DNA of 64,000 nt from a virus: positions 16,961-80,960 of IMG/VR virus record IMGVR_UViG_3300045988_080038. The stretch is one strand, 5' to 3'. The notes under the pieces are model-generated. The model was not told the DNA's origin. It did not search any database and saw only the letters and a list, made by a program, of their open reading frames with translations. A program made the translations under genes and the position numbers. Positions 15,642 to 54,319 of the stretch are shown here, piece by piece (position 1 is the stretch's first letter; the number at the start of each line of letters is the position of its first letter).

Positions 15642-15775
15642 AATAGATAACCTCCTTGTTGGTCGTCGGCATCTCCATAATATGCCAGAATCCTTGATTT
15701 ATAAAAACAGTAGGCAGGTGCATCAAGGTTTACACTTTTCGGCGGCCAACCTAGCCTACTGAATTTAACTAAATA

Positions 15776-16141: not shown

Positions 16142-16255
16142 AGAAAAATACCTGCCTTTCGTATAAAAGATGCCTTGAATGTATGTAAATCAACAGGCAG
16201 GCGGCAAGGCATTTCCGCTTGTCCCCCGTCGGGTAAGCCTGTTGGTTTTACCGTA

Positions 16256-16665: not shown

Positions 16666-19600
16666 TTACCATGCTGGACTAGGGTTTTTCCGCCGGTTGT
16701 TGTCGTTCTGGGCTTTTGTGACAGCTTTCGCAATAGCACGTCCGTCCAGATTGATCGTGTTGGAAATGTACTGCGGAGATGAGCTTCCACCGGCATTCAT
16801 GTTCATCATCGCCATGGCAACGCCCTGTGTTACCGCTTGTGTCATTTCTTCCTTACCTAGCCCAATGCTTCCGTTCGGAATGTTTCCGGTAATGCTGTCA
16901 GCGATACTCTTCATGGCCTGTTTATTGGTCAGCGGAAGGACTGCTTCCTTTCCGGCTTCACCGACACCAATCACAGATGCTGCATTGAAAAGACCGCCTT
17001 TGGCGTACCAGTCAACTCTCGAATTGTACCGCCACTTGTGGGTCTGCCCCTCTTGCCAATCAGTGTAATCCATGGATATGTGTGGAGTTCTGATGTTGAT
17101 TGACTCCATGCCGTTTCGGAGATTCTGCATAGCCGTTTGCCCGATACTGTACATATCTCCGAAATTTCGACTGATTGTATTAACTATACCGTTGATCGCA
17201 CCGCCTATGCTCGTGTCCATTGTTCCTCGGATGTAAGAAGATATATCCCTTCCCAGATTTTCCCATTTCTTGAGAGCGATTCTGTACTGGCTTCCAAAGT
17301 GGCTGCGGACGGTTTCGTCCATTCTGCCAAGCTCTGTACTTGCATCAACCTTCATCTGGCGGACATTTTTGGTTACTTCACGGGAAGAATTTCCCCAGTT
17401 CTTTGTCGCAGATATGCTTACACGGCTGAAGGATTTTTCAGCGCTTGTAGCTGCGGACGCAGAATTGATTTCAGTCTGTCCAGTAATGGTGTCCCAAGCC
17501 CCTTTAATTTTTGAACCGATTGAATCCCATGCTGTTTTGGTATTTGAACTAATAGTGTCCCACACGCCGGTTACAGTGTTCTTAATGTTTGTGAACGTAT
17601 CAATCACGCTTCCGATTCTGTCAGAAATTCCCTGTTTCAGTCCTGACATCAAAAATCCGCCGATCTCAGCAAAAACCGTAGACGGAGAATGAATACCAAA
17701 AAGGTTTTTAACACCGTTGATAATAGGGTCCGAGATGTTTGTTTTAAGCCATGTTCCAACAGTGGAAATCACGTTTTTAGCGCCGTTGTAAAGTCCATTG
17801 ATAAGGTTTGAGCCATGTGTGTAAAGCCAAGTTCCGGCAGTGCTGAATGCATTTTCTATTGCTTCCTTAGCTTTACCGGCAAATTCCGTAACAGTATCCC
17901 AATTTTGCCACAGAAGAAATCCACCGACAACAGCTCCGATAACAGCTAAGCCTATCGGACTGAACAGTACGCTGCCCAATGTAGAAAACGCTGTTGCCAT
18001 AGCTGGTGCAAAAGTTCCTGTAATCCAAGTTCCGATTGAACCAGCGAAGGCAGTTGCAGCTGGCCAAAGTTTGGTAGTTATAACTTCAAGGATTTTCGGA
18101 GCAATCTGTGTTGTTATGGTGGTCGGGATTGCTTTCAACTTGTCAACAGCTTCCAGAGCGTAAACTCCAACAGTTGTGCCTAATGTACTGGTTGAAAATG
18201 CAGTCGCTATTTTGCTGAGTGCTGTTCCCAGTAATGTTGCCGTAGCACTGGTCCCGGTCGGCAGTTTTCCCATAGCAACTAAGATAGATGATACCAGGGT
18301 ATCTGCCTTTGACACCAATCCTACACCGGCAAATGCAACTACAAACTTACCGGCTGTAGTTTCTCCTAATCCAGAAAAAATCCCGCCAAGAACATCCAGT
18401 AATACTGTTGCTAAATCCTTTAAATGGCTTCCCCAGTCTATCTGACTAAGGAATAGTCCGATGCCCCTTCCGAAGGATTCCCAGTCTGTTTCTCCTGCGA
18501 TATCAACCAGAGCATTCAGTAAGTTGGTGATGAAAGTGTTTAAGGATGTTCCGTTCTCTTTCCACTTGAACTTTCCGATAAAAGTATTGATTCCGTTGGA
18601 AATATTAGTTACCAATCCGCCCCAGTTGAATTTTTGTGTCCATGCAGCCAATGTCTGAAATGCACCGTTTAATCCGGTCGCAATCGTAGTTGCTATTTTG
18701 GAGAATGAAATTCTGCCAAAAGCTCCATTCATGGCATCAGCAACCGCAGTTCCCAACTGTTCCCAGCCAGTCAGACCGGCATTATTCTCTTTTGACATCT
18801 TCTGAACAAAACCGTCCAGAATATTCCAGCTTATCATAAAACCACTGCCAAGGAATTGGCCAAGGTTCGGCCAGTTAACTTCATCAATCATTCCACGAAG
18901 CCCCGTTGCCAGTTTGTTACCAATGTTTGTGAAGTCAATACCACCCGGGCCAATCAGAAGCTCAAAGGTGTTGACTAAAGTGTTGATACCGGCACCAACA
19001 GTACGCCCTAATCTATCCCAGTGAATGTTTTCGACAAGGCTGTTAAAAGATCGAGTAAAAGCATCACAAAATGCAGAGATCTTCGGTCCTACATTGCTCC
19101 AACTAATAACATCATAAATCTTCCGGATTCCGATATTAAGCATATCTGCAATGGTCTTTCCAAGTCCTTCCCAGTCATGGTTAAGAAAAGCTTTGCGGAT
19201 TTTTTCAGCCCATTTATTGATAGGGGTTTCTTCTTTGTTCAGAGCATCGTCTATCTGGTCCGTGATTCCGCCAAGACCCAATGACGGTGTTGTGCCGGTT
19301 CCAGTTTTACCCTTTCCGGTACTAGGTGTTGAACCGGATGAACTAGAATTATCTGTCAGCTGATTCAGTTCGTCAAATGGAAGAACAGAAAGAGCTTTCT
19401 TCAGAGTTTTTGCTGATGAAGTAGCATCGTCCAGCCCAGAAGCCGCTGCATCTCCGGCGTCCTGTAATCCGCTAAGGTCTGCTGCGGAATCTTCCAGTCC
19501 AGCAAGATCATTTACGACCCCGCTTGTGGAACCTTTGATTTTTTTACCCATCAGAACATACATGAAGTTACGGAATGTTTCCGCAGCCTGCATAAGTTTT

Positions 19601-42370: not shown

Positions 42371-42441
42371 TCGGAATGGCAGGAATCGAACCTGCGACAC
42401 ATGACTTGTAAGTCACTGCTCTACCGCTGAGCTACATTCCG
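42371..42441 (-). tRNA. tRNA-Val(UAC)-like with a 6-nt anticodon loop
   Basis: Hand-folded: CGGAATG/CATTCCG acceptor, GCTC-AGCGGTA-GAGC D arm, GTGAC-TTACAA-GTCAT anticodon arm, GCAGG-TTCGATT-CCTGC T arm. Confidence 0.55.
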
Positions 42442-42629
42442 TGCCGCTTACCACGGCTGATCACCTCGGTAAATGAATGAGATGATTTCCATTTTGCACA
42501 ACATATAAATGATATGCTTTTCGTACTGCCCAGCAGTCCTCAGGATAAACATCAACCTTTTCCCATGGGTTTAATCCGCTTGAACCATAGGCCGCCCGTG
42601 CACTGACAGCATAGAACGAACGAATTAAT

Positions 42630-42701
42630 TTGCAGGAGACGGATTCGAACCGCCGTTCTCAAGGATATGAGCCTTGTGAGATTCCACTTCTCCATCCTGC
42701 C
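42630..42701 (-). tRNA. tRNA-Met/Ile2 (anticodon CAT)
   Basis: Hand-folded cloverleaf: CAAGG-CTCATAT-CCTTG anticodon arm, GGCGG-TTCGAAT-CCGTC T arm. Position 1-72 is a G.A mismatch. Confidence 0.7.
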
Positions 42702-43000
42702 TTAACCCGGATTGTACCGGGTTAGCAATAGGTTTATCGTGTTATGCTTTCCACTAGACTGTTTTCATCCGTGCCAGTCCCACGGAGTTGTTTCGGAGGA
42801 TTATTCCTGAAATGCCTCTTGAAAACTCCCTGTCGTCAACGTGCACTCATTGGCGACATATTCAACTCAGAGGCAGTACCGAACGGGAAGTTGCTTTTTC
42901 AATCCGGCTACGCCGTTACGTACCTTCTGGAAAACAACCCACATACACACATTCGGCAGTTTTTTCTGCCCATTAAACGGATGGGCAGCTTTGGGAGAAA

Positions 43001-43074
43001 TGGAAGCTCTGGGGCTCGAACCCAGGACCGACCGGTTATGAGCCGGTTACTCTAACCAACTGAGCTAAGCTTCC
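43001..43074 (-). tRNA. tRNA-Met/Ile2 (anticodon CAT)
   Basis: Canonical cloverleaf: GGAAGCT acceptor, GCTC-AGTTGGTTA-GAGT, ACCGG-CTCATAA-CCGGT, CTGGG-TTCGAGC-CCCAG. Confidence 0.85.
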
Positions 43075-43289
43075 TGAGTAGCAAAAAGATACAGGGTCGC
43101 TGCGATATCTGTCTTTTTACTACTGTTGCAGTTCTTGACCGCCAGCTGCAACAAAGGTTGAAACCACCCGGAACATTTGACTGTTCCTTTAGTCATCGCC
43201 GTTGCGATAGGTGGTTAAAGGGTATTTCATGAAAAAAGGAAAAAGAAAATCCAATCTGCATCAAAGGGAAGATGAAGCCCGATGCAGAG

Positions 43290-43361
43290 CGGCGCATGTG
43301 GGATTCGAACCCACGCATGCCGGAGTCAAAGTCCGGTGCGTTACCGCTTCGCCAATGCGCT
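43290..43361 (-). tRNA. tRNA-Gln (anticodon TTG)
   Basis: CCGGA-CTTTGAC-TCCGG anticodon arm, AAGCGGTAA D loop, GTGGG-TTCGAAT-CCCAC T arm, G73. Closely parallels E. coli tRNA-Gln. 1-72 unpaired (A.C). Confidence 0.8.
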
Positions 43362-46485: not shown

Positions 46486-47229
46486 TTATGCCCTAACCAG
46501 TCCTTGTCCCTGTAGTAACAGTCGAAATGTTTCCTTGCCTTTTATAGTGATATATGTTTGAACATTTGAATACCCATAAGGCGTTGAAAAATCTTTCATC
46601 TGGAAAAGCCCTGACTTTCGATGCTGTTCGTATGGTTTTATGATATTGTGCCGGTCTCGATAAATATACCCGTTATCTGACAGCCATTTCGTAAGCGTCT
46701 TGGGTGGCATGTGAAATTCTTTCGCAGCGTCCCGAAATGTTGTGAGCAGTCTATTGTCTACAAGAGAATCGAAGTACTCCGCTTTGGGCTTCTGCTCCTG
46801 CACTTTCTGTTCAAGTAACTGCTTTTCCTGCTGTTCTTCAATCCATCTTTTAGCTCGCTCTATCGGATCAGCTATCTGGTAAGAATCTTGTTTCTGACCA
46901 ACTTCATACTTTCCGGTTTTACGGATAGAAGGAAGGACTTCTGCTGTTACCCAATGTTTAAATCTTTTTGCAGAATCGAGTTTGCTTGATAGTATAAGTG
47001 AAAACAAACCGCTCTCATTTATCACGATTGTTTCCTGTACTCCGCTGTTTGAAGGGAGGCTGCATTTCAGGGCGTCCTCTTTATCGACATGATTAGCAAT
47101 GGCGTTTCGTTCTTTTACGTATCCTAATGCTTTTGCTACATCGTTTCCAACGAACCAAGGATTTCCGTCTATCGTCACTGTTCTTACGTTTCCAAATTCT
47201 GGATTGCTAAAAATCATCATTTCATTCAT
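46486..47229 (-). CDS. Antirepressor (Bro-N + KilAC domain), second copy
   Basis: FSNPEFGNVRTVTIDGNPWFVGNDVAKALGY Bro-N motif. C-terminal TFRDAAKEFHMPPKTLTKWLSDNGYIY (KilAC-like). Confidence 0.75.
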   Translation of the reverse strand: MNEMMIFSNPEFGNVRTVTIDGNPWFVGNDVAKALGYVKERNAIANHVDKEDALKCSLPSNSGVQETIVINESGLFSLILSSKLDSAKRFKHWVTAEVLPSIRKTGKYEVGQKQDSYQIADPIERAKRWIEEQQEKQLLEQKVQEQKPKAEYFDSLVDNRLLTTFRDAAKEFHMPPKTLTKWLSDNGYIYRDRHNIIKPYEQHRKSGLFQMKDFSTPYGYSNVQTYITIKGKETFRLLLQGQGLVRA

Positions 47230-47597
47230 TCTTCATACCTGCCTTTCTTGGTATTGCCTTATTTTGTGTTGGCAGAGAAACCGTTAAGGCTTACGGCTTG
47301 TCGTGTTGCAATCACTATCTCTGCCATGTGAAAAGGGCCTTTTTGTTATTTTATTTGCTTTGGGGGCTCACCCGGCTCCTGGTGGCTTTCCCTCCAAGGG
47401 GGTCCCCGTCTCATCCGTACGCTATCCGGTCAGCCCGCCGCCCCATGGGACCCGCTGCACCGGATCACACTGTTGTTGTTCGGCCTTCGGCAGTAGTCAG
47501 AGGAAGTTGATGCCGCTTTTCGTTCGTCATATTGCACAAATTTTCTCGTGCTGTTCATTGTACATTTTAAGTACACCCTATTTATACATTACGGTAA

Positions 47598-47658: not shown

Positions 47659-48252
47659 TCACAGCTTCGGCCGTTCCATCTCTGGAAGCTCCAGCGCGTC
47701 CTTGTACCGGTCCGCGATCTGCTGCGCTGACTGCTGCGGGATACCTTGCACATGATCCGCCTGGACCGGTGCTGTCTCTGCCATGCCGTATGCAGCTTTC
47801 GCAACGAAGATCAGGTTTGCATTTGTTCCGGGTTGGTTATGCAGTCTATTAAGCGTGCAGTTTTTGCAAATATCGAACCATTTTTTCACCGTGTTGCTAT
47901 GTGCTGTGGCGGTTCTATAGTCCCCGCGCATCCAATCGCTAAACGTTGAGCGGTTAATCCCTACCAGAAAACTAAATACTTCCAGAGTCGGTAAAACATG
48001 ATACTTACTGCACAGCCTTACAAACACACTAAACATATGATCTAATAATTCTATATCATCGTTACTGGGTTTCTGTATGTGATCAGCAATATAAAATATC
48101 ATATCAACAAAACTATCAGCTACTTCTTTTCTGTAATTCTCACTATCAGGTGATACACATAACACTGTGTTAATATATTCATCAGCATATATATTAATAT
48201 TACTCAAGTATACTTCTGTTTCCTTCTCTGTCTTGATAGTATTATCTTTCAC
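47659..48252 (-). CDS. terS: Terminase small subunit (tentative)
   Basis: VGINRSTFSDWMRGDY HTH-like segment and NANLIFVAKAAYGM motif, as seen in Firmicute phage TerS. 9 kb away from terL. Confidence 0.5.
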   Translation of the reverse strand: MKDNTIKTEKETEVYLSNINIYADEYINTVLCVSPDSENYRKEVADSFVDMIFYIADHIQKPSNDDIELLDHMFSVFVRLCSKYHVLPTLEVFSFLVGINRSTFSDWMRGDYRTATAHSNTVKKWFDICKNCTLNRLHNQPGTNANLIFVAKAAYGMAETAPVQADHVQGIPQQSAQQIADRYKDALELPEMERPKL

Positions 48253-48296: not shown

Positions 48297-48400
48297 TAAA
48301 AAGGACGATACCAAACCGGTTAGCAATCGAAGAACACGCCCAGCAGCTACGATCAGCGCCGGAAGTTCCGTAAATGCTTTTCAGTTTTTATCGTCCTTTG
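48297..48400 (-). promoter_or_regulatory. Large stem-closed structured element ending in a T-run, 45 nt upstream of terS
   Basis: 11-bp closing stem AAAGGACGATA/TATCGTCCTTT around about 78 nt (internal palindromes CGGAACTTCCG, AACCGGTT), followed on the minus strand by TTTTTATTTT. Confidence 0.4.
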
Positions 48401-48891
48401 TTTAAAAATCGTAAATGTATTTGTTTATCTGCCATTTACAATAGCACATGTAAGTCATTAATGCAAGCATAAATTTATTTTTATTGCTCAATGCATAATA
48501 AAAGACCTATTGATAAAATAATCCATTACAACTCAATATACAACGTTATAGAGCTATATATATTATAATATAGTGTATCTAAGTATATATTAATAAACTC
48601 AGAATCTAGGAGGGGCTTAAAAGATGTTATAATACGGTACTGTATAGAATTAATTAATAGAGGATTGTATATATAATATAATTATAGGGCGTTTTGGCAC
48701 AGAAAAAGCCAGGCTTCCGGCGTCTGATCCGGTTACCTGGCTGAATGATTTTTTATTGATTTTCGATTGGCTCGCCCCTCCTGAGTTCCTCGTTAATGAC
48801 ACGATAGCACATTTTACAAAAACCTGTCAAGCCAAAAGCAAAAAATATTTTTCTTGACAAAACAAACATTTGTGTGCTATGAATAATTTAA

Positions 48892-48980
48892 CAGACTTCG
48901 GCGGCGGGTCTGTTCTCCCCTCGTTAGCCGCCACAAAAAAGAGTTTAAGCCCCTGGAGATTATCCAAGGGCTTTTTTTTC
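48892..48980 (+). ncRNA. Candidate small RNA (about 90 nt) with own promoter and terminator
   Basis: TTGACA (48854-59), 18 nt, TGcTATGAA (48875-83). Alternative stems ACAGAC/GTCTGT and GGCGGC/GCCGCC. Terminator AAGCCCCTGG...CCAAGGGCTT + T8 (48947-48979). Confidence 0.35.
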
Positions 48981-48981
48981 T

Positions 48982-49157
48982 TTCCACAATGGGGCTATTA
49001 TTAATCATTAACATTCTAACTTTACATTCAGGCAAAAACGCCTGTTCCACAATGTGACTATTAATGTTTTGCTAACTTAATAACTAATGATCCAATTTTA
49101 CATTCGTCATAAAAATGACGTTATAGTTATAATAATATAATCATTGTCAGCTGTCAA
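48982..49157 (-). ncRNA. Candidate RNA of about 170 nt with two hairpin+handle repeat units, own promoter
   Basis: Minus strand TTGACA (49157-52), 17 nt, TATTAT (49134-29). Then CGTCAT-TTTT-ATGACG + AATGTAAAAT...CATTGTGGAA, then CAGGC-GTTTTT-GCCTG + AATGTAAAGT...CATTGTGGAA. Ends at the shared hairpin at 48947-73. Confidence 0.35.
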
Positions 49158-49160
49158 TAA

Positions 49161-49853
49161 TCACATTAAAAACACCGGGTTTCCGCAGCTGTCAATTTCG
49201 GTCGTGACTTCTTGCCCTGCATCAAGATACGCCGTTTTTACATCTTCGAAAATTCGCCGTTCTCTGTCCACCGTATATTTTTTGTGAAGTGTGTAAACAG
49301 TGCCGGAGATTTCCGGAAGTACCGGTGCATAAGCTGGCAAATCCAACACCACTTTTTTCGGCGGCAAAATGTCAACAACTTCGATCTTATCAATTATCAA
49401 CAAATCCTCATGTCGGCCCAGGTTTGGAAACCGTCTCGGATACTTCAGCATTTTATAAATTATGTCAACTTCCTTTTCGTTTTTTGGCTGAACGTGTAAA
49501 CGCAAATTCAAATCTGCGACAAAATCAACTAAAACCGGCGTATTAACCCAGCCTGTGAACCCCGGGCCGTTTTTCACTCGGACGGGAAAACGCTTTTTAA
49601 ATTCTTCCGTTTCTGATCCGGCATAAGCTCCACCCTTCCAGCGTTTTGTAAACTCCTGTTCGTTCATCGTTCCGCTTCCGGCTATTGATATGTTCATGTC
49701 GTGCCAGCTACTCCACCGGCACAAAAAATGGACCATCCCGGCAACTGTAGAAAAAGGCGGCAGTGGGTACGTATATACCCTTTTCCCGGCGTGCGAAAAA
49801 GGCGTTGCGAAAACGCCCTTTTCCATGTATCCCTCTATTAGCACTGTATTCAT
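49161..49853 (-). CDS. Cas5-like RAMP protein (solitary)
   Basis: GVFATPFSHAGKRVYTYPLPPFSTVAGMVHFLC (Cas5 N-terminal PPPST-G type motif), WKGGAYAGSE, NLGRHEDLLIID, GTVYTLHKKYTV. Start MNTV is ATGA-coupled to the upstream ORF. Confidence 0.45.
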   Translation of the reverse strand: MNTVLIEGYMEKGVFATPFSHAGKRVYTYPLPPFSTVAGMVHFLCRWSSWHDMNISIAGSGTMNEQEFTKRWKGGAYAGSETEEFKKRFPVRVKNGPGFTGWVNTPVLVDFVADLNLRLHVQPKNEKEVDIIYKMLKYPRRFPNLGRHEDLLIIDKIEVVDILPPKKVVLDLPAYAPVLPEISGTVYTLHKKYTVDRERRIFEDVKTAYLDAGQEVTTEIDSCGNPVFLM

Positions 49854-50047
49854 GGCTCTTCGGCCTCGCATCTGAAGCCGAAAAGGATATCTTCGTAAAG
49901 CTGATCGGGAATTTCCTCTTCCATCAGTGGCTTTCGGTTTTCGGTTCTAAGCTCTTCGTCAAGACTTGCGTCGATATCTCTGAGAGCCTTTTCCCTACTG
50001 AAGCCCATTTTTACAACTTCGTTTAAAAGATTGATTGTTTTTTTCAT
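49850..50047 (-). CDS. Small acidic protein (65 aa)
   Basis: MKKTINLLNEVVKMGFSREK...EEEIPDQLYEDILFGFRCEAEEP. AAGGAAAA RBS. Within ORF 49850..50194. Confidence 0.45.
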   Translation of the reverse strand: MKKTINLLNEVVKMGFSREKALRDIDASLDEELRTENRKPLMEEEIPDQLYEDILFGFRCEAEEP

Positions 50048-50080
50048 GTCTTTTTCCTTTCTTTGTGGTATAATATTATT

Positions 50081-50190
50081 GTCACTTGCGGAGGATGTTC
50101 CGTAAGCGGAGCGGCCAACAATCCCGGTCGCCGAGGGTTGAAACAATAATTTTAAGTGTAAAGAGCTGGTTTCCGGCTCTTTATTCTTTC
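50081..50190 (+). ncRNA. Candidate antisense small RNA with CRISPR-repeat-like hairpin-GTTGAAAC element
   Basis: Extended -10 TGgTATAAT (50066-74). Stems CTTGCGGA/TCCGTAAG and CCCGG..CCGAGGG, then TTGAAAC (50138-44). Terminator AAGAGCTGG-ttt-CCGGCTCTT + TTATTCTTT (50161-89). Confidence 0.35.
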
Positions 50191-50474
50191 GCATTTTTCC
50201 CGTCCCCGTAACATTTATAAAAAGTTTCTACCAGCTCCGCCAGTTCCTGCGGCGTAAGCTTTTCTTTTAAGCTGTCCGGGATACGGCTGTAGTTGGCCGC
50301 AAAAGTATCACGACACTTTCCAATCTTGCAGGCTTTTTTGACCTGCTCGAGCTTGTACATTTCTCCAAGCTCTTCTACGGTGATTCCACCGTTTTTAACT
50401 TCTTCCCGTCCTTCTTTTGTCAAGATGGACATTGCTTCTTTCTTGCTAACAACTCCGATTCCGTTGATTCTCAT
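50181..50474 (-). CDS. Hypothetical protein (97 aa)
   Basis: ORF track. Confidence 0.5.
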   Translation of the reverse strand: MRINGIGVVSKKEAMSILTKEGREEVKNGGITVEELGEMYKLEQVKKACKIGKCRDTFAANYSRIPDSLKEKLTPQELAELVETFYKCYGDGKNAKE

Positions 50475-50492
50475 TTCTTTCCCCTCCTTGTT

Positions 50493-50765
50493 CTATTCTT
50501 CAAATCCTGGATACGGCTTGAAAGTTTCAGCCCATTGTGCCTCGTCTTCTTCCGTCCACTCCGGCTCCTCTTCCGGCTCAACCTCGTAGGAACATCCGGC
50601 AGCGTCCTCAAAGATGTTATCTTCGTATTCGGTCATCCACTGACCGTCTACAAGGCAATCATATCCGGTTGCGTGGATGAATCCAACGCCGTCCTCGAAA
50701 CGATCGAACGGCATGTTTTTAAGTTGTACCCTTCTTGTAGCTTTTCCAGCCTCTGTATTTTTCAT
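50493..50765 (-). CDS. Small highly acidic protein (90 aa)
   Basis: ORF track. C-terminal half EVEPEEEPEWTEEDEAQWAETF. Confidence 0.5.
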   Translation of the reverse strand: MKNTEAGKATRRVQLKNMPFDRFEDGVGFIHATGYDCLVDGQWMTEYEDNIFEDAAGCSYEVEPEEEPEWTEEDEAQWAETFKPYPGFEE

Positions 50766-50938
50766 TTCACCCCTCCTGATCCGCCCCGCTGAGGGCTGTT
50801 TGCTTGGTTTTTATTCACTTACAGTTATTTGCTATTTTCACATCATAAATCATAACAATAATGTTTTCCGTATTTTTCAAAATAAAATTTTTCCAAGTTT
50901 GCCATATTATAACCACTTCCTTTCTATGGTTACAGTAT

Positions 50939-51358
50939 AGTCTATTTTCGTGTATTTGTCAATAGTCTATTTCCATGTATTTTATTTATTTTTTATACTC
51001 CATGATATCAGACGGTTGACAGTTCAATAATTTGCATAATGTGCAGATGACTTCACAAGTTACATTTTCGTTTTTAGTCAGCTTTGCTACTGTATTAGAA
51101 TGTAATCCGTTGTTTTTTAACCACTGTTTATTAAGTTCTTTCTTTTTTAATACGTTCCATAGCTTTGAAAAATCAATATAACCATTCTTTCCATAATCGG
51201 CCATTGTTTTTCACCTCCTTATTTATAAATATATGATAATAGATTTTTGGCATTAAGTCAATGTCTATTTTTATGTACTATTTGCACAAAAATAAGCTGT
51301 GTTATATGGTCTATTTTCGTGTATCTTGTGTATTTACTTTTAGTCTATTATCGTGTAT
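50939..51358 (+). repeat. Five direct copies of a 17-bp motif (A/G)GTCTATTTTCGTGTAT flanking the HTH gene
   Basis: Copies at 50939-55, 50964-80, 51262-78, 51308-24 and 51342-58, each with 0-4 mismatches to the consensus. Confidence 0.6.
50986..51204 (-). CDS. XRE/Cro-type HTH regulator (72 aa)
   Basis: LKKKELNKQWLKNNGLHSNTVAKLTKNENVTCEVICTLCKLLNCQPSDIMEY (HTH_26-like). Confidence 0.7.
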   Translation of the reverse strand: MADYGKNGYIDFSKLWNVLKKKELNKQWLKNNGLHSNTVAKLTKNENVTCEVICTLCKLLNCQPSDIMEYKK

Positions 51359-51553: not shown

Positions 51554-51633
51554 TAGCCGAAACGGTCAGAAATGACCGTCCACCGGGAACGCCCCACCGG
51601 TGCTGATGATGGCAGGGCAGAAAGGAAAACAAA

Positions 51634-53750: not shown

Positions 53751-54319
53751 TCTGTGCAACTGGCACCGATCCGGGGCACAGTGTCCAAACAGTGGCGAAA
53801 GTATGTTCTGTTTTGGATCCACTGTACAACCGCTCTATTCGGCTTTTTAACGGCCGATTAGATTCCGGTCGAAGAAGTATAGCCTTGTCAGTTCTGCGGG
53901 CGTTGTGGGCGAAATTAGAGTGTCAGTTATTGACGCCTGGGAAATCCCCGGCACCGGTCCGCAGGTGATCCGCAGCCTTTTGCAGAATTGGTCATGCTGG
54001 TTGTGAAACGAACGATATTTCTGGAAGTCCTTGAATATTTGCAATATTCAGACACAGAAAAATGCCGAAAAACGCTCAAAAAAAGAACTGCTGGAAAATA
54101 ATCTTTATTTCTGGATTTCCATTTTGTTTATCTTGCATATATTAATCCATAGCATCTTCCGAGGAGATGTGAAAAATCACGAATCAATTTAATTTATTTA
54201 ATCCATCGGATTTTCTCCTAGCCGTATTCTTCGTCTTGTATGTGGTCCGTTGTTTCCGAACTTTCACCTTCTGTTCCGTCTTATCTTTCTTCCTACGTAC
54301 TTTATTGTGTGCTGATCGT

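Follow-up and report, generated by a model that had tools for sequence, protein, structure and literature searches.

A phage Cas5 homolog of the type I-B lineage lies beside a repeat-derived RNA gene in a putative anti-CRISPR island

A 64,000-nucleotide stretch of the IMG/VR virus record IMGVR_UViG_3300045988_080038 (positions 16,961 to 80,960 of that record; hereafter the window, numbered from its first letter) belongs to a tailed phage, as large terminase, portal, tape-measure, and tail proteins were detected in it. On its minus strand, a gene for a 230-residue homolog of Cas5, a subunit of type I CRISPR surveillance complexes, is followed immediately by a small RNA gene assembled from pieces of a type I-B repeat. 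The evidence presented here consists of the homology, fold, and orphan status of the protein, the identity of the repeat, the targeting of the phage family by host CRISPR arrays, and the linkage of gene and RNA. We consider it likely that the locus is an island directed against type I-B immunity, in which a faulty Cas5 subunit is paired with a CRISPR RNA (crRNA) mimic of the Racr/Cracr class.

A preliminary description of the interval from 49161 to 51204 had proposed a free-standing phage Cas5 as an undescribed anti-defense mechanism. This claim to novelty has been overtaken. AcrIB3, a Cas5 homolog on Listeria mobile elements, is known to block type I-B interference, and the same study lists 358 orphan viral cas genes from IMG/VR (Katz et al., bioRxiv 10.1101/2023.06.24.545427). 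Three sister loci of the window (IMGVR_UViG_3300045988_035813, _103204, and _117306) appear in Table S3 of Katz et al. as orphan CAS-I-B cas5 genes with Blautia_A as the predicted host, and the viral family is thus already catalogued there, without testing or further description. A Cas5-derived anti-CRISPR is therefore known, and it is the overlooked, tightly linked RNA gene that gives the locus its added interest: Cas-derived anti-CRISPR (Acr) proteins and repeat-mimicking RNAs have been described separately, and this locus joins them by placing a handle-binding subunit beside a handle-displaying RNA. Such a tight pairing of Cas5 with a handle-bearing RNA is undescribed in the literature that we searched.

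Results

The phage protein is an orphan homolog of type I-B Cas5

The start of the Cas5-like gene is MNTV at 49853, where an ATGA overlap couples it to the stop codon of the preceding 65-residue open reading frame (ORF). This start is correct because the homologs begin with MKAV or MNTV. The preliminary description had read the product as a Cas5/RAMP homolog from several motifs, every one of which is in the translation, and both profile and structure searches bear that assignment out. The type I-B Cas5b model TIGR01895 matched end to end (E=4.6e-18; residues 2-215 against model positions 2-202 of 217), with a score of 65.6 bits that falls under the curated cutoff of 96.7. PF09704 matched weakly (E=3e-4; 21.2 versus a cutoff of 23), TIGR02593 scored 14.6 versus 17.8, and no NCBIfam Cas5d model was among the matches at E<=1. 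An AlphaFold2 model calculated from 18 family members (pLDDT 89, pTM 0.81) had Cas5 subunits of Cascade complexes, including type I-B, as all of its top PDB matches (8ip0_A, 8h67_A, and 8fcj_A; probability 1.0, TM 0.5-0.63).

The viral proteins thus resemble bona fide Cas5b (TIGR01895; 8ip0_A, 8h67_A, and 8fcj_A) in fold, end-to-end match to the profile hidden Markov model (HMM), and core motifs. They retain PLPP.STV.GM.H..C and LG..D of the Cas5 core, and AcrIB3 likewise has the core motifs PLPP.STV.GM.H and LGRHED. An alignment of 18 family members contains 34 invariant residues. The family also has an invariant signature of its own, RWKGGA..ETEEFK.RFPVR..GWV.P. The viral proteins also carry a 4-residue insertion in the long β-hairpin region and lack the variable C-terminal insertion of Cas5b.

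Homologs formed 55 clusters in the protein collection, and 97 IMG/VR contigs, many of them 75-80 kb, encode the viral family. Unlike bona fide Cas5b, this family was never seen inside a cas operon: close homologs (44-94% identity) were orphans in phage or prophage DNA at every locus examined, as expected if the gene is the solitary phage gene that the preliminary description took it to be. A more distant homolog, P0055 (30% identical), is located in a full cas6-cas8b-cas7-cas5-cas3-cas4-cas1-cas2 operon. When Cas6, Cas8b, Cas7, Cas3, Cas4, Cas1, and Cas2 of a type I-B operon were used as tblastn queries, there were zero matches across the 64-kb window, in keeping with the earlier statement that no other cas gene is present. 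Megablast against deposited phages gave a sole match, of 430 bp, to an unannotated human faecal phage contig.

AcrIB3, whose sequence we took from the supplement of Katz et al., was 31% identical to the window protein (E=1e-35) and 29-31% identical across comparisons. In a neighbor-joining tree, built without bootstrap from 12 family members, AcrIB3, and 16 genuine Cas5b proteins from complete operons, the phage family formed a clade of its own, with 27-33% identity to AcrIB3 and to every Cas5b protein compared, whereas AcrIB3 clustered with Cas5b of the Listeria/Enterococcus type and was 45% identical to Listeria Cas5. From these identities, the viral family was probably co-opted separately and independently of AcrIB3. 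Both are full-length Cas5 homologs from the type I-B lineage, and both are found alone on a mobile element among anti-defense genes. They differ in that the window family forms its own clade and has gut Lachnospiraceae, not Listeria, as hosts.

Other viral Cas5-like sequences came to light in these searches. BFVD entry A0A8D9PGM8, a 275-residue uncharacterised 'Bacteriophage sp.' protein (30% identity, TM 0.84), was the only strong viral structural match and is a further unannotated viral Cas5-like protein. 'Listeria phage LM 4-11-1/4-14-1' was considered as a carrier of AcrIB3-type orphans and rejected, as it has a complete Cas8b-Cas7-Cas5-Cas3 operon with a genuine Cas5. The records concerned, OR846720.1 (L137, 'Listeria phage LM 4-11-1') and OR848150.1, are marked UNVERIFIED_ORG, and their type I-B Cas8b-Cas7-Cas5-Cas3 operon may be host contamination or a phage-borne system.

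A repeat-derived RNA gene lies directly downstream of cas5

Immediately downstream of the Cas5-like gene, at about 48937-49157 on the minus strand and outside the interval covered by the preliminary description, is a small RNA gene. In type I-B crRNA processing, Cas6 cleaves 8 nt from the 3' end of the repeat, so that the 5' part of the repeat becomes the 3' handle of the crRNA and the 3' part becomes an 8-nt 5' handle, which is the portion that Cas5 binds. Both handle sequences occur in the RNA gene, arranged as two units:

49161-49853, minus strand: 230-residue orphan viral Cas5 homolog, type I-B lineage, own clade
49129-49157, minus strand: promoter-like site of the RNA gene, TTGACA-17-TATTAT, 11/12 consensus matches, conserved in the close clade
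49097-49120, minus strand: unit 1 hairpin CGTCAT-TTTT-ATGACG, closing on the G before the 5'-handle-like AATGTAAA
49064-49096, minus strand: pseudo-spacer 1, 33 nt, AT-rich, version 'Sa'
49045-49063, minus strand: 5' part of the repeat (3'-handle-like), TAATAGTCACATTGTGGAA
49021-49044, minus strand: unit 2 hairpin CAGGCG-TTTT-TGCCTG plus AATGTAAA, inserted where the natural repeat is continuous
49001-49020, minus strand: pseudo-spacer 2, 20 nt, shortened 'Sb' version
48982-49000, minus strand: 5' part of the repeat (3'-handle-like), TAATAGCCCCATTGTGGAA
48937-48973, minus strand: intrinsic terminator, 11-bp stem with 6 GC pairs and a T-run, conserved in sister phages

The promoter-like site, identified by its match to the consensus, begins 4 nt past the cas5 stop codon, and the terminator probably also ends the cas5 operon. 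The sequence GAATGTAAA occurs twice in the window and the motif TAATAG..CAT..TGGAA has 2 sites in the 64 kb versus 0.3 expected; all of these copies fall inside the RNA gene. The 76-bp unit 2 is absent from loci L015 and L016. Searches of Rfam at gathering and permissive thresholds found no family for the element.

The preliminary description had stated that no canonical array is present. This is correct for regular CRISPR arrays, none of which was detected in the window by Tandem Repeats Finder, and it passes over the RNA gene. Where a canonical array has at least three regular full repeats and unrelated spacers of host length, this element repeats with a 76-nt period in two units, both of them split, and its pseudo-spacers (33 and 20 nt) are related to each other.

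Two classes of viral RNA are relevant for comparison. Racrs, or solitary repeat units (SRUs), are viral small RNAs downstream of promoters that mimic CRISPR repeats, and in the RacrIC1-AcrIC5 pair the Racr shares a transcript with an acr gene (Camara-Wilpert et al., Nature 2023, PMC10651486). Like a Racr, the window RNA mimics the repeat of a host system and directly follows a promoter-like site in an acr context. Unlike a Racr, it contains no solitary complete repeat: the repeat is split into two handle halves around a pseudo-spacer, the 5' handle is kept and capped by a hairpin, and the gene directly follows a cas5 homolog, so that the partner protein is itself related to Cas5. SRUs were characterised as not being cas-associated, the main text of that study does not mention type I-B, and the complexes formed with RacrIF1 are without Cas5f and Cas8f because this RNA has no 5' handle (PMC10651486).

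The second class, viral Cracrs, is described by Liu et al. (bioRxiv 10.1101/2024.10.29.618823) as having degenerate repeats, a short conserved pseudo-spacer, and a terminator, and as being sometimes multiplexed; they are co-encoded with Acr proteins (AcrIF24-CracrIF), and type I-B candidates are predicted. The window RNA shares the degenerate repeats, short conserved pseudo-spacer, terminator, and proximity to acr-type genes of these elements, and differs in that no host promoter target or cognate CreR/CreA was identified for it. Liu et al. make no mention of Cas5 homologs (0 occurrences), and no hairpin-capped handle was found in the passages retrieved from that work. Finally, according to background cited in PMC10651486, Cas5d of the Cas6-less type I-C systems binds the repeat hairpin and cleaves at its base. 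The position of a hairpin immediately 5' of a handle beside a Cas5-family protein resembles this system in logic only, as the viral Cas5 is of the I-B lineage by sequence and matches PF09704 weakly.

The repeat belongs to host type I-B systems that target the phage family

A scan with one genome per species revealed >100 genuine arrays with repeats ending in GGAATGTAAA, mainly in Lachnospiraceae, Ruminococcus, and other Clostridia, with consensus repeats that include GTTTTAATAGAAACATTGTGGAATGTAAAG (L135) and GTATTAATAGAAACATTGTGGAATGTAAAT (L090, Ruminococcus sp. AM36-2AA). The arrays with matching repeats flank complete type I-B operons. Because the pieces of the phage RNA match the L135 and L090 repeats, they are the 5' and 3' parts of a type I-B repeat. 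The preliminary description had anticipated a type I-B or I-C system in the host; the subtype is I-B and not I-C.

We extracted 1,950 spacers from the matching host arrays. At least nine spacers of the L090 array matched the phage family at 94-100% over their full length, and a 5'-CCA protospacer-adjacent motif (PAM) was present at 21 of 27 protospacers of the family. One protospacer is in the window itself, in the intergenic gap between an antirepressor gene and a TerS-like gene:

47446-47481, no strand assigned: protospacer hit by two spacers of the Ruminococcus sp. AM36-2AA type I-B array (33/35 nt at 97% and 36/36 nt at 94%), with a CCA PAM

Based upon the match of L090 spacers and PAM, both the host lineage and a selective pressure acting on the phages are identified, in agreement with the Blautia_A prediction. 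As a separate observation, one protospacer is targeted by two spacers of the single L090 array (L090_+_3797 and L090_+_4460); in L159 and L142, CCG or ACA replaces CCA next to it and the protospacer is otherwise conserved, a pattern that is consistent with CRISPR escape.

These results bear on a suggestion made by Katz et al. for viral cas genes generally (10.1101/2023.06.24.545427), by which the viral Cas5 would complement or boost host type I-B immunity against other phages, to the benefit of host or lysogen. We consider such a role very improbable here: host type I-B spacers target the very phages that carry the gene, its neighbors in the locus are markers of acr islands, and in the Katz et al. 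study genuine Cas5, expressed in the same manner as AcrIB3, had no effect by itself and caused no inhibition, whereas the diverged homolog inhibited.

The RNA element accompanies the viral cas5 across phages

Both repeat-derived pieces were present <=330 nt downstream of the viral cas5 in 85 of 87 loci; in L011, natural repeats lie upstream of the gene instead. In the reverse direction, the full set of viral contigs was searched for the architecture of the RNA without regard to the gene, the gap being limited to lengths below those of real arrays. Of the 109 stretches recovered, 89 had the viral cas5 directly upstream on the same strand, 6 were cut by the edge of the locus, and about 14 stood alone. 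A repeat-derived RNA accompanies the viral cas5 in about 85-98% of loci, unlike the situation at the AcrIB3 locus. Each element has one or two units, and across clades with 44-57% protein identity the handle motifs were invariant and the promoter and terminator were kept.

This conservation argues strongly against the possibility that cas5 and the degenerate repeats are functionless remnants of a captured host CRISPR locus. Remnants would explain why the repeats are incomplete and why the protein scores under the curated Cas5b cutoff. They would not explain why the family has stayed intact and full length across 55 protein clusters and 97 viral contigs, with 34 residues invariant among the 18 aligned sequences, nor would they account for invariant handles, covarying stems, and a promoter and terminator kept at 44-57% protein identity. 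Moreover, cas5 is not adjacent to the array in host loci, and the cas5-RNA arrangement is thus not one of simple capture. We regard evolutionary debris as a highly unlikely explanation.

A hairpin precedes the 5' handle in the elements linked to cas5. In 18 of 19 distinct contexts, a 5-7-bp stem closed exactly on the G before AATGTAAA; among shuffled sequences, 12% had a stem of >=5 bp. The stems include at least four that are unrelated, together with compensatory variants (CGTCAT to CATCAT, CAATTAC to CAGTTAC). This count was anchored on the structure and used shuffles; RNAalifold on a MAFFT alignment, in which the variable stems were misaligned, gave no structure. Folding predicted the 5' hairpin in 6 of 6 versions carrying one and the terminator in 6 of 6 folds whose input reached it; the input for the window RNA ended before its terminator, and the terminator folds are those of related single-unit RNAs. 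The 5' handle was single-stranded in most predicted folds, and the single-unit RNAs had z-scores from -3.3 to -4.4. A conserved hairpin inside the pseudo-spacer was also considered and dropped, as whole-unit folds were inconsistent in the interior.

The form of the handle correlates with the presence of the protein. Among cas5-linked elements, 88 of 89 had the hairpin-capped handle, in which an unrelated hairpin substitutes for the upstream half of the repeat, and in two-unit elements it splits an otherwise continuous repeat near the expected Cas6 cleavage site. By contrast, all 13 stand-alone elements with enough flanking sequence had the natural repeat, being compact mini-arrays that start with a near-complete copy of it. 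The RNA thus has the hairpin cap where it accompanies the protein and the natural repeat where it stands alone, a correlation that suggests that protein and RNA work together.

The stand-alone type I-B mini-arrays occur in other, larger phages (L253, L258, L277, L295, and L319, on contigs of 130-166 kb; L279/L298; L297; and L247), where they lie among small acidic ORFs and have AT-rich pseudo-spacers of 24-28 nt. The L279 element has four repeats, with pseudo-spacers that resemble one another. These mini-arrays are candidate type I-B Racr or Cracr genes.

The pseudo-spacers are inherited, and their targets are sought

In the cas5-linked elements, the pseudo-spacers are AT-rich, 19-35 nt in length versus 35-37 nt for host spacers, and fall into about eight mutually related versions. 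These properties indicate that they are inherited rather than acquired. Viral mini-arrays directed against related viruses are known (cited in PMC10651486), and the promoter-like site and terminator of the window element are intact, as a functional guide for inter-virus conflict or superinfection exclusion would need, with the viral Cas5 aiding or biasing loading. However, the pseudo-spacers are shorter than host spacers, AT-rich, conserved, and similar across lineages; all 18 exact matches of the window pseudo-spacer in viral contigs lie within the elements themselves; and the hairpin splits the internal repeat at the presumed Cas6 cut position. A guide of this kind is improbable.

An RNA that guides host Cascade, possibly with the viral Cas5, to silence the promoter of the host cas operon or of a CreT-like toxin, in the manner of a Cracr, is a more serious alternative. 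Its architecture (degenerate repeats, a 19-35-nt pseudo-spacer, a promoter, a terminator, and acr neighbors) matches the viral Cracrs of Liu et al., and the conservation and relatedness of the pseudo-spacers between lineages, with a shared TTAGTTATT-like core, would be expected if the host target were fixed, and would not be if the spacers had been acquired. Against this hijack, we found no convincing match to the pseudo-spacers in host type I-B loci, which rarely include the region upstream of cas6. Elsewhere in the window there was no credible target except one: the only good match, 20 of 21 nt, is in the phage's own DNA at 53914-53934, lacks a CCA PAM, and resembles a degenerate paralogous copy. 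We think silencing of this type rather unlikely as the main activity; it may also hold alongside the paired action of Cas5 and RNA that we favor.

The 21-nt site at 53914-53934 (plus strand), ATTAGAGT(G/A)TCAGTTATTGAC, is conserved at 1649-1669 in L013 and at 1309-1329 in L014 and L015. It falls in a GC-rich non-coding stretch and is 20/21 identical to the sister-phage pseudo-spacer version 'Sd', without a CCA PAM; its left flank, TTGTGGgcGAAA, resembles a junction between repeat and pseudo-spacer. This sequence may be a third copy that has degenerated, or it may serve in self-regulation. A search of host loci for isolated repeats like those of CreR/CreA, which allowed 2 mismatches in a 10-mer, returned mostly noise. 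In L040 (JAEWEN010000028.1, minus strand, about 364), an isolated repeat, a ~27-nt AT-rich segment, and a degenerate repeat lie ~200 nt beyond a host type I-B array; this unit may be a host CreR/CreA-like mini-array or a decayed array end.

The surrounding operon resembles an anti-CRISPR island

Five minus-strand ORFs lie between 49161 and 51204, in the order helix-turn-helix (HTH) regulator, 90-residue protein, 97-residue protein, 65-residue protein, and Cas5-like protein. The preliminary description had given this operon, its coordinates, the MNTV start, and the ATGA coupling, and all are present in the sequence. The features upstream of cas5 are:

51305-51358, no strand assigned: two 20-nt operator-like repeat copies (TATGGTCTATTTTCGTGTAT and TTTAGTCTATTATCGTGTAT), upstream of P1 and over a divergent plus-strand promoter-like site
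51233-51261, minus strand: promoter-like P1 (TTGACT-17-TATCAT) upstream of the HTH gene, 10/12 consensus matches, consensus only
50986-51204, minus strand: HTH regulator, 72 residues, Cro/C1-type, HTH_26 (PF13443, E=9.7e-12)
50934-50980, minus strand: promoter-like P2 (TTGACA-17-TATACT) between the HTH gene and the small ORFs, 11/12 consensus matches
50936-50955 and 50961-50980: operator-like repeat copies 3 and 4, overlapping P2 and covering its -35 and -10 hexamers
50493-50765, minus strand: 90-residue, very acidic cargo protein, net charge about -17 (counted by hand)
50181-50474, minus strand: 97-residue protein, about neutral, variable cargo
49850-50047, minus strand: 65-residue acidic protein, charge about -7, ATGA-coupled to the Cas5-like gene

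The four copies of the 20-nt operator-like repeat family (D1) are 85-100% identical and are at two promoter regions. The HTH protein probably represses the island promoters in the manner of anti-CRISPR-associated (Aca) regulators, a role that fits the coverage of the -35 and -10 hexamers of P2 by the 20-nt repeats. Its best NCBIfam match was VanU-like (E=3.7e-11), far below the cutoff of that model. The corresponding loci of L009 and L013-15 also begin with HTH_26 genes, and in L247 an HTH_26-like gene lies ahead of the stand-alone RNA element.

The 90- and 97-residue proteins had no family match in Pfam, NCBIfam, or PHROG. The former is present in a subset of sister loci only, and L297 encodes a homolog of the latter (63% identical) at a distance of 1.7 kb from its stand-alone RNA element. 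Homologs of the ORF coupled to cas5 in L010 also adjoin stand-alone RNA elements in other phages. The 65-residue protein, whose mechanically called ORF runs to 50194 and whose homologs begin at MKKT, is conserved in both main clades, overlaps cas5 by 4 nt in most loci, and has the conserved motif MKKTIDLLNEVV.MGF.REKAL.DIDASLD..L.ERKPLMEEEIP. The idea that it mimics Cas11 or the Cas8b C-terminus, like AcrIB4, was rejected at the sequence level; an HMM of its family found nothing better than E=7.8 in the complete ORF sets of about 120 type I-B loci, and an AcrIB4 tblastn search of the window gave zero matches.

In about 20 sister phages (among them L183, L190, L193, L195, L196, L199, and L176), a gene directly upstream of the viral cas5 and coupled to it encodes a protein of 264-279 residues that combines an AP2 domain with two CapR-like Cys motifs. 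This protein is similar to adc37 and to members of the CasPR family, which act by silencing cas operons. With its HTH_26 gene and four operators, its variable small ORFs, and the CasPR-like gene in its sisters, the locus looks like an anti-CRISPR island, as the acr/aca-like layout noted in the preliminary description had suggested.

Discussion

Our preferred model is that the island is directed against the type I-B system of a Lachnospiraceae host like Blautia_A or 'Ruminococcus sp. AM36-2AA' and has two effectors. The first would be the diverged Cas5, which, with its remodelled β-hairpin region and shortened loops, would occupy the Cas5 position at the crRNA 5' handle and leave a Cascade that is unable to act. 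This proposal is modeled on AcrIB3, which acts upstream of DNA binding and co-immunoprecipitates with Cas6, indicating that it assembles into a defective Cascade, one that has lost DNA binding (Katz et al., 10.1101/2023.06.24.545427). The second would be the small RNA, made from its own strong promoter and probably also by read-through from the operon. By displaying the host 5' handle (AAUGUAAA) and 3' handle (UAAUAG..CAU..UGGAA) around a non-targeting pseudo-spacer, it would act as a crRNA mimic and soak up Cas6, Cas7, and Cas5/Cas8b, like Racr and Cracr RNAs. Because Cas5 binds the 5' handle and the cas5-linked RNAs carry a hairpin-capped handle, we infer that the viral Cas5 would load preferentially on the phage RNA and nucleate dead-end complexes with host subunits.

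A more specific version is that the viral Cas5 and the capped RNA form a dedicated two-component anti-CRISPR. Here, Cas5 would recognize, and perhaps process in the manner of Cas5d, the junction between the hairpin and AAUGUAAA, making the 5' end of the mimic independent of host Cas6 and seeding host Cas7 and Cas8b onto a pseudo-Cascade that is either inert or silences host immune genes. We offer this version tentatively, as possible and on balance doubtful.

Several points weigh against pairing of the two effectors. First, about 14 viral contigs have the RNA and no viral Cas5, the viral Cas5 of the P0029 prophage lineage is unaccompanied by the RNA, and the AcrIB3 locus also lacks the RNA: its next coding sequence begins 31 nt downstream, and exact AATGTAAA, in which the Listeria type I-B repeat presumably ends, does not occur within 3 kb. 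Thus, neither part strictly needs the other. Second, the correlation between the form of the RNA and the presence of Cas5 rests on few lineages (>=3 versus >=4) and has exceptions in L010 and L011. Third, the hairpin might simply be required for processing or stability because the RNA lies behind a coding gene. Finally, we infer every biochemical step of the paired model, including inhibition, expression of the RNA, and contact between Cas5 and the RNA.

The pipeline of Katz et al. removed hits near predicted arrays, and an adjacent mini-array or crRNA-like gene goes unmentioned in that work (10.1101/2023.06.24.545427). If the pair acts together, the phage would build a counterfeit of the surveillance complex, supplying the seed itself and taking the other subunits from the host. 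Type I-B systems are common in gut Clostridia, where they are used for genome editing, and such a mechanism would offer a compact means of inhibiting them or a guide format that does not depend on Cas6. The family is present in about 100 viral contigs of human gut viromes, and with host array, PAM, and protospacers identified the model is directly testable.

Additional features of the window

Several other elements were noted in the window. Just past the terminator of the RNA gene, at about 48700-48935 on the minus strand, is a conserved GGCGGC...GCCGCC hairpin, and a promoter-like site (48830-48801) and a terminator (48721-48708) bracket a candidate small RNA of ~100 nt. The blocks GGAACTCAGGAGGGG and CCGG..CTGGCTTTTT in this region are kept even in the distant L009; an Rfam search of the region found no match. 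Farther along, at 48300-48399 (minus strand), an 11-bp perfect inverted repeat (AAAGGACGATA / TATCGTCCTTT, 78 nt apart) followed by a T-run is located in the leader of the weakly TerS-like gene at 47659-48252; it is leader- or attenuator-like and is conserved in sister phages. The antirepressor gene downstream of the locus (46486-47229, minus strand) encodes Bro-N and KilAC/ANT domains.

On the other side of the island, a full-length match to the type II hammerhead ribozyme model at 51555-51621 (plus strand; 40.6 bits versus a gathering threshold of 37) is flanked by two small ORFs of the plus strand; the HTH gene, on the other strand, is about 350 nt away. Four tRNA genes are present at 42371-43361 (minus strand), two for tRNA-Met(CAT), one for tRNA-Gln(TTG), and one without an anticodon assignment by ARAGORN. 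Two full-length matches to the int-alpA sRNA family, at 15692-15761 and 16173-16244 (minus strand; 55.2 and 43.6 bits versus a gathering threshold of 35.8), flank a 121-residue ORF beside the tape-measure gene.

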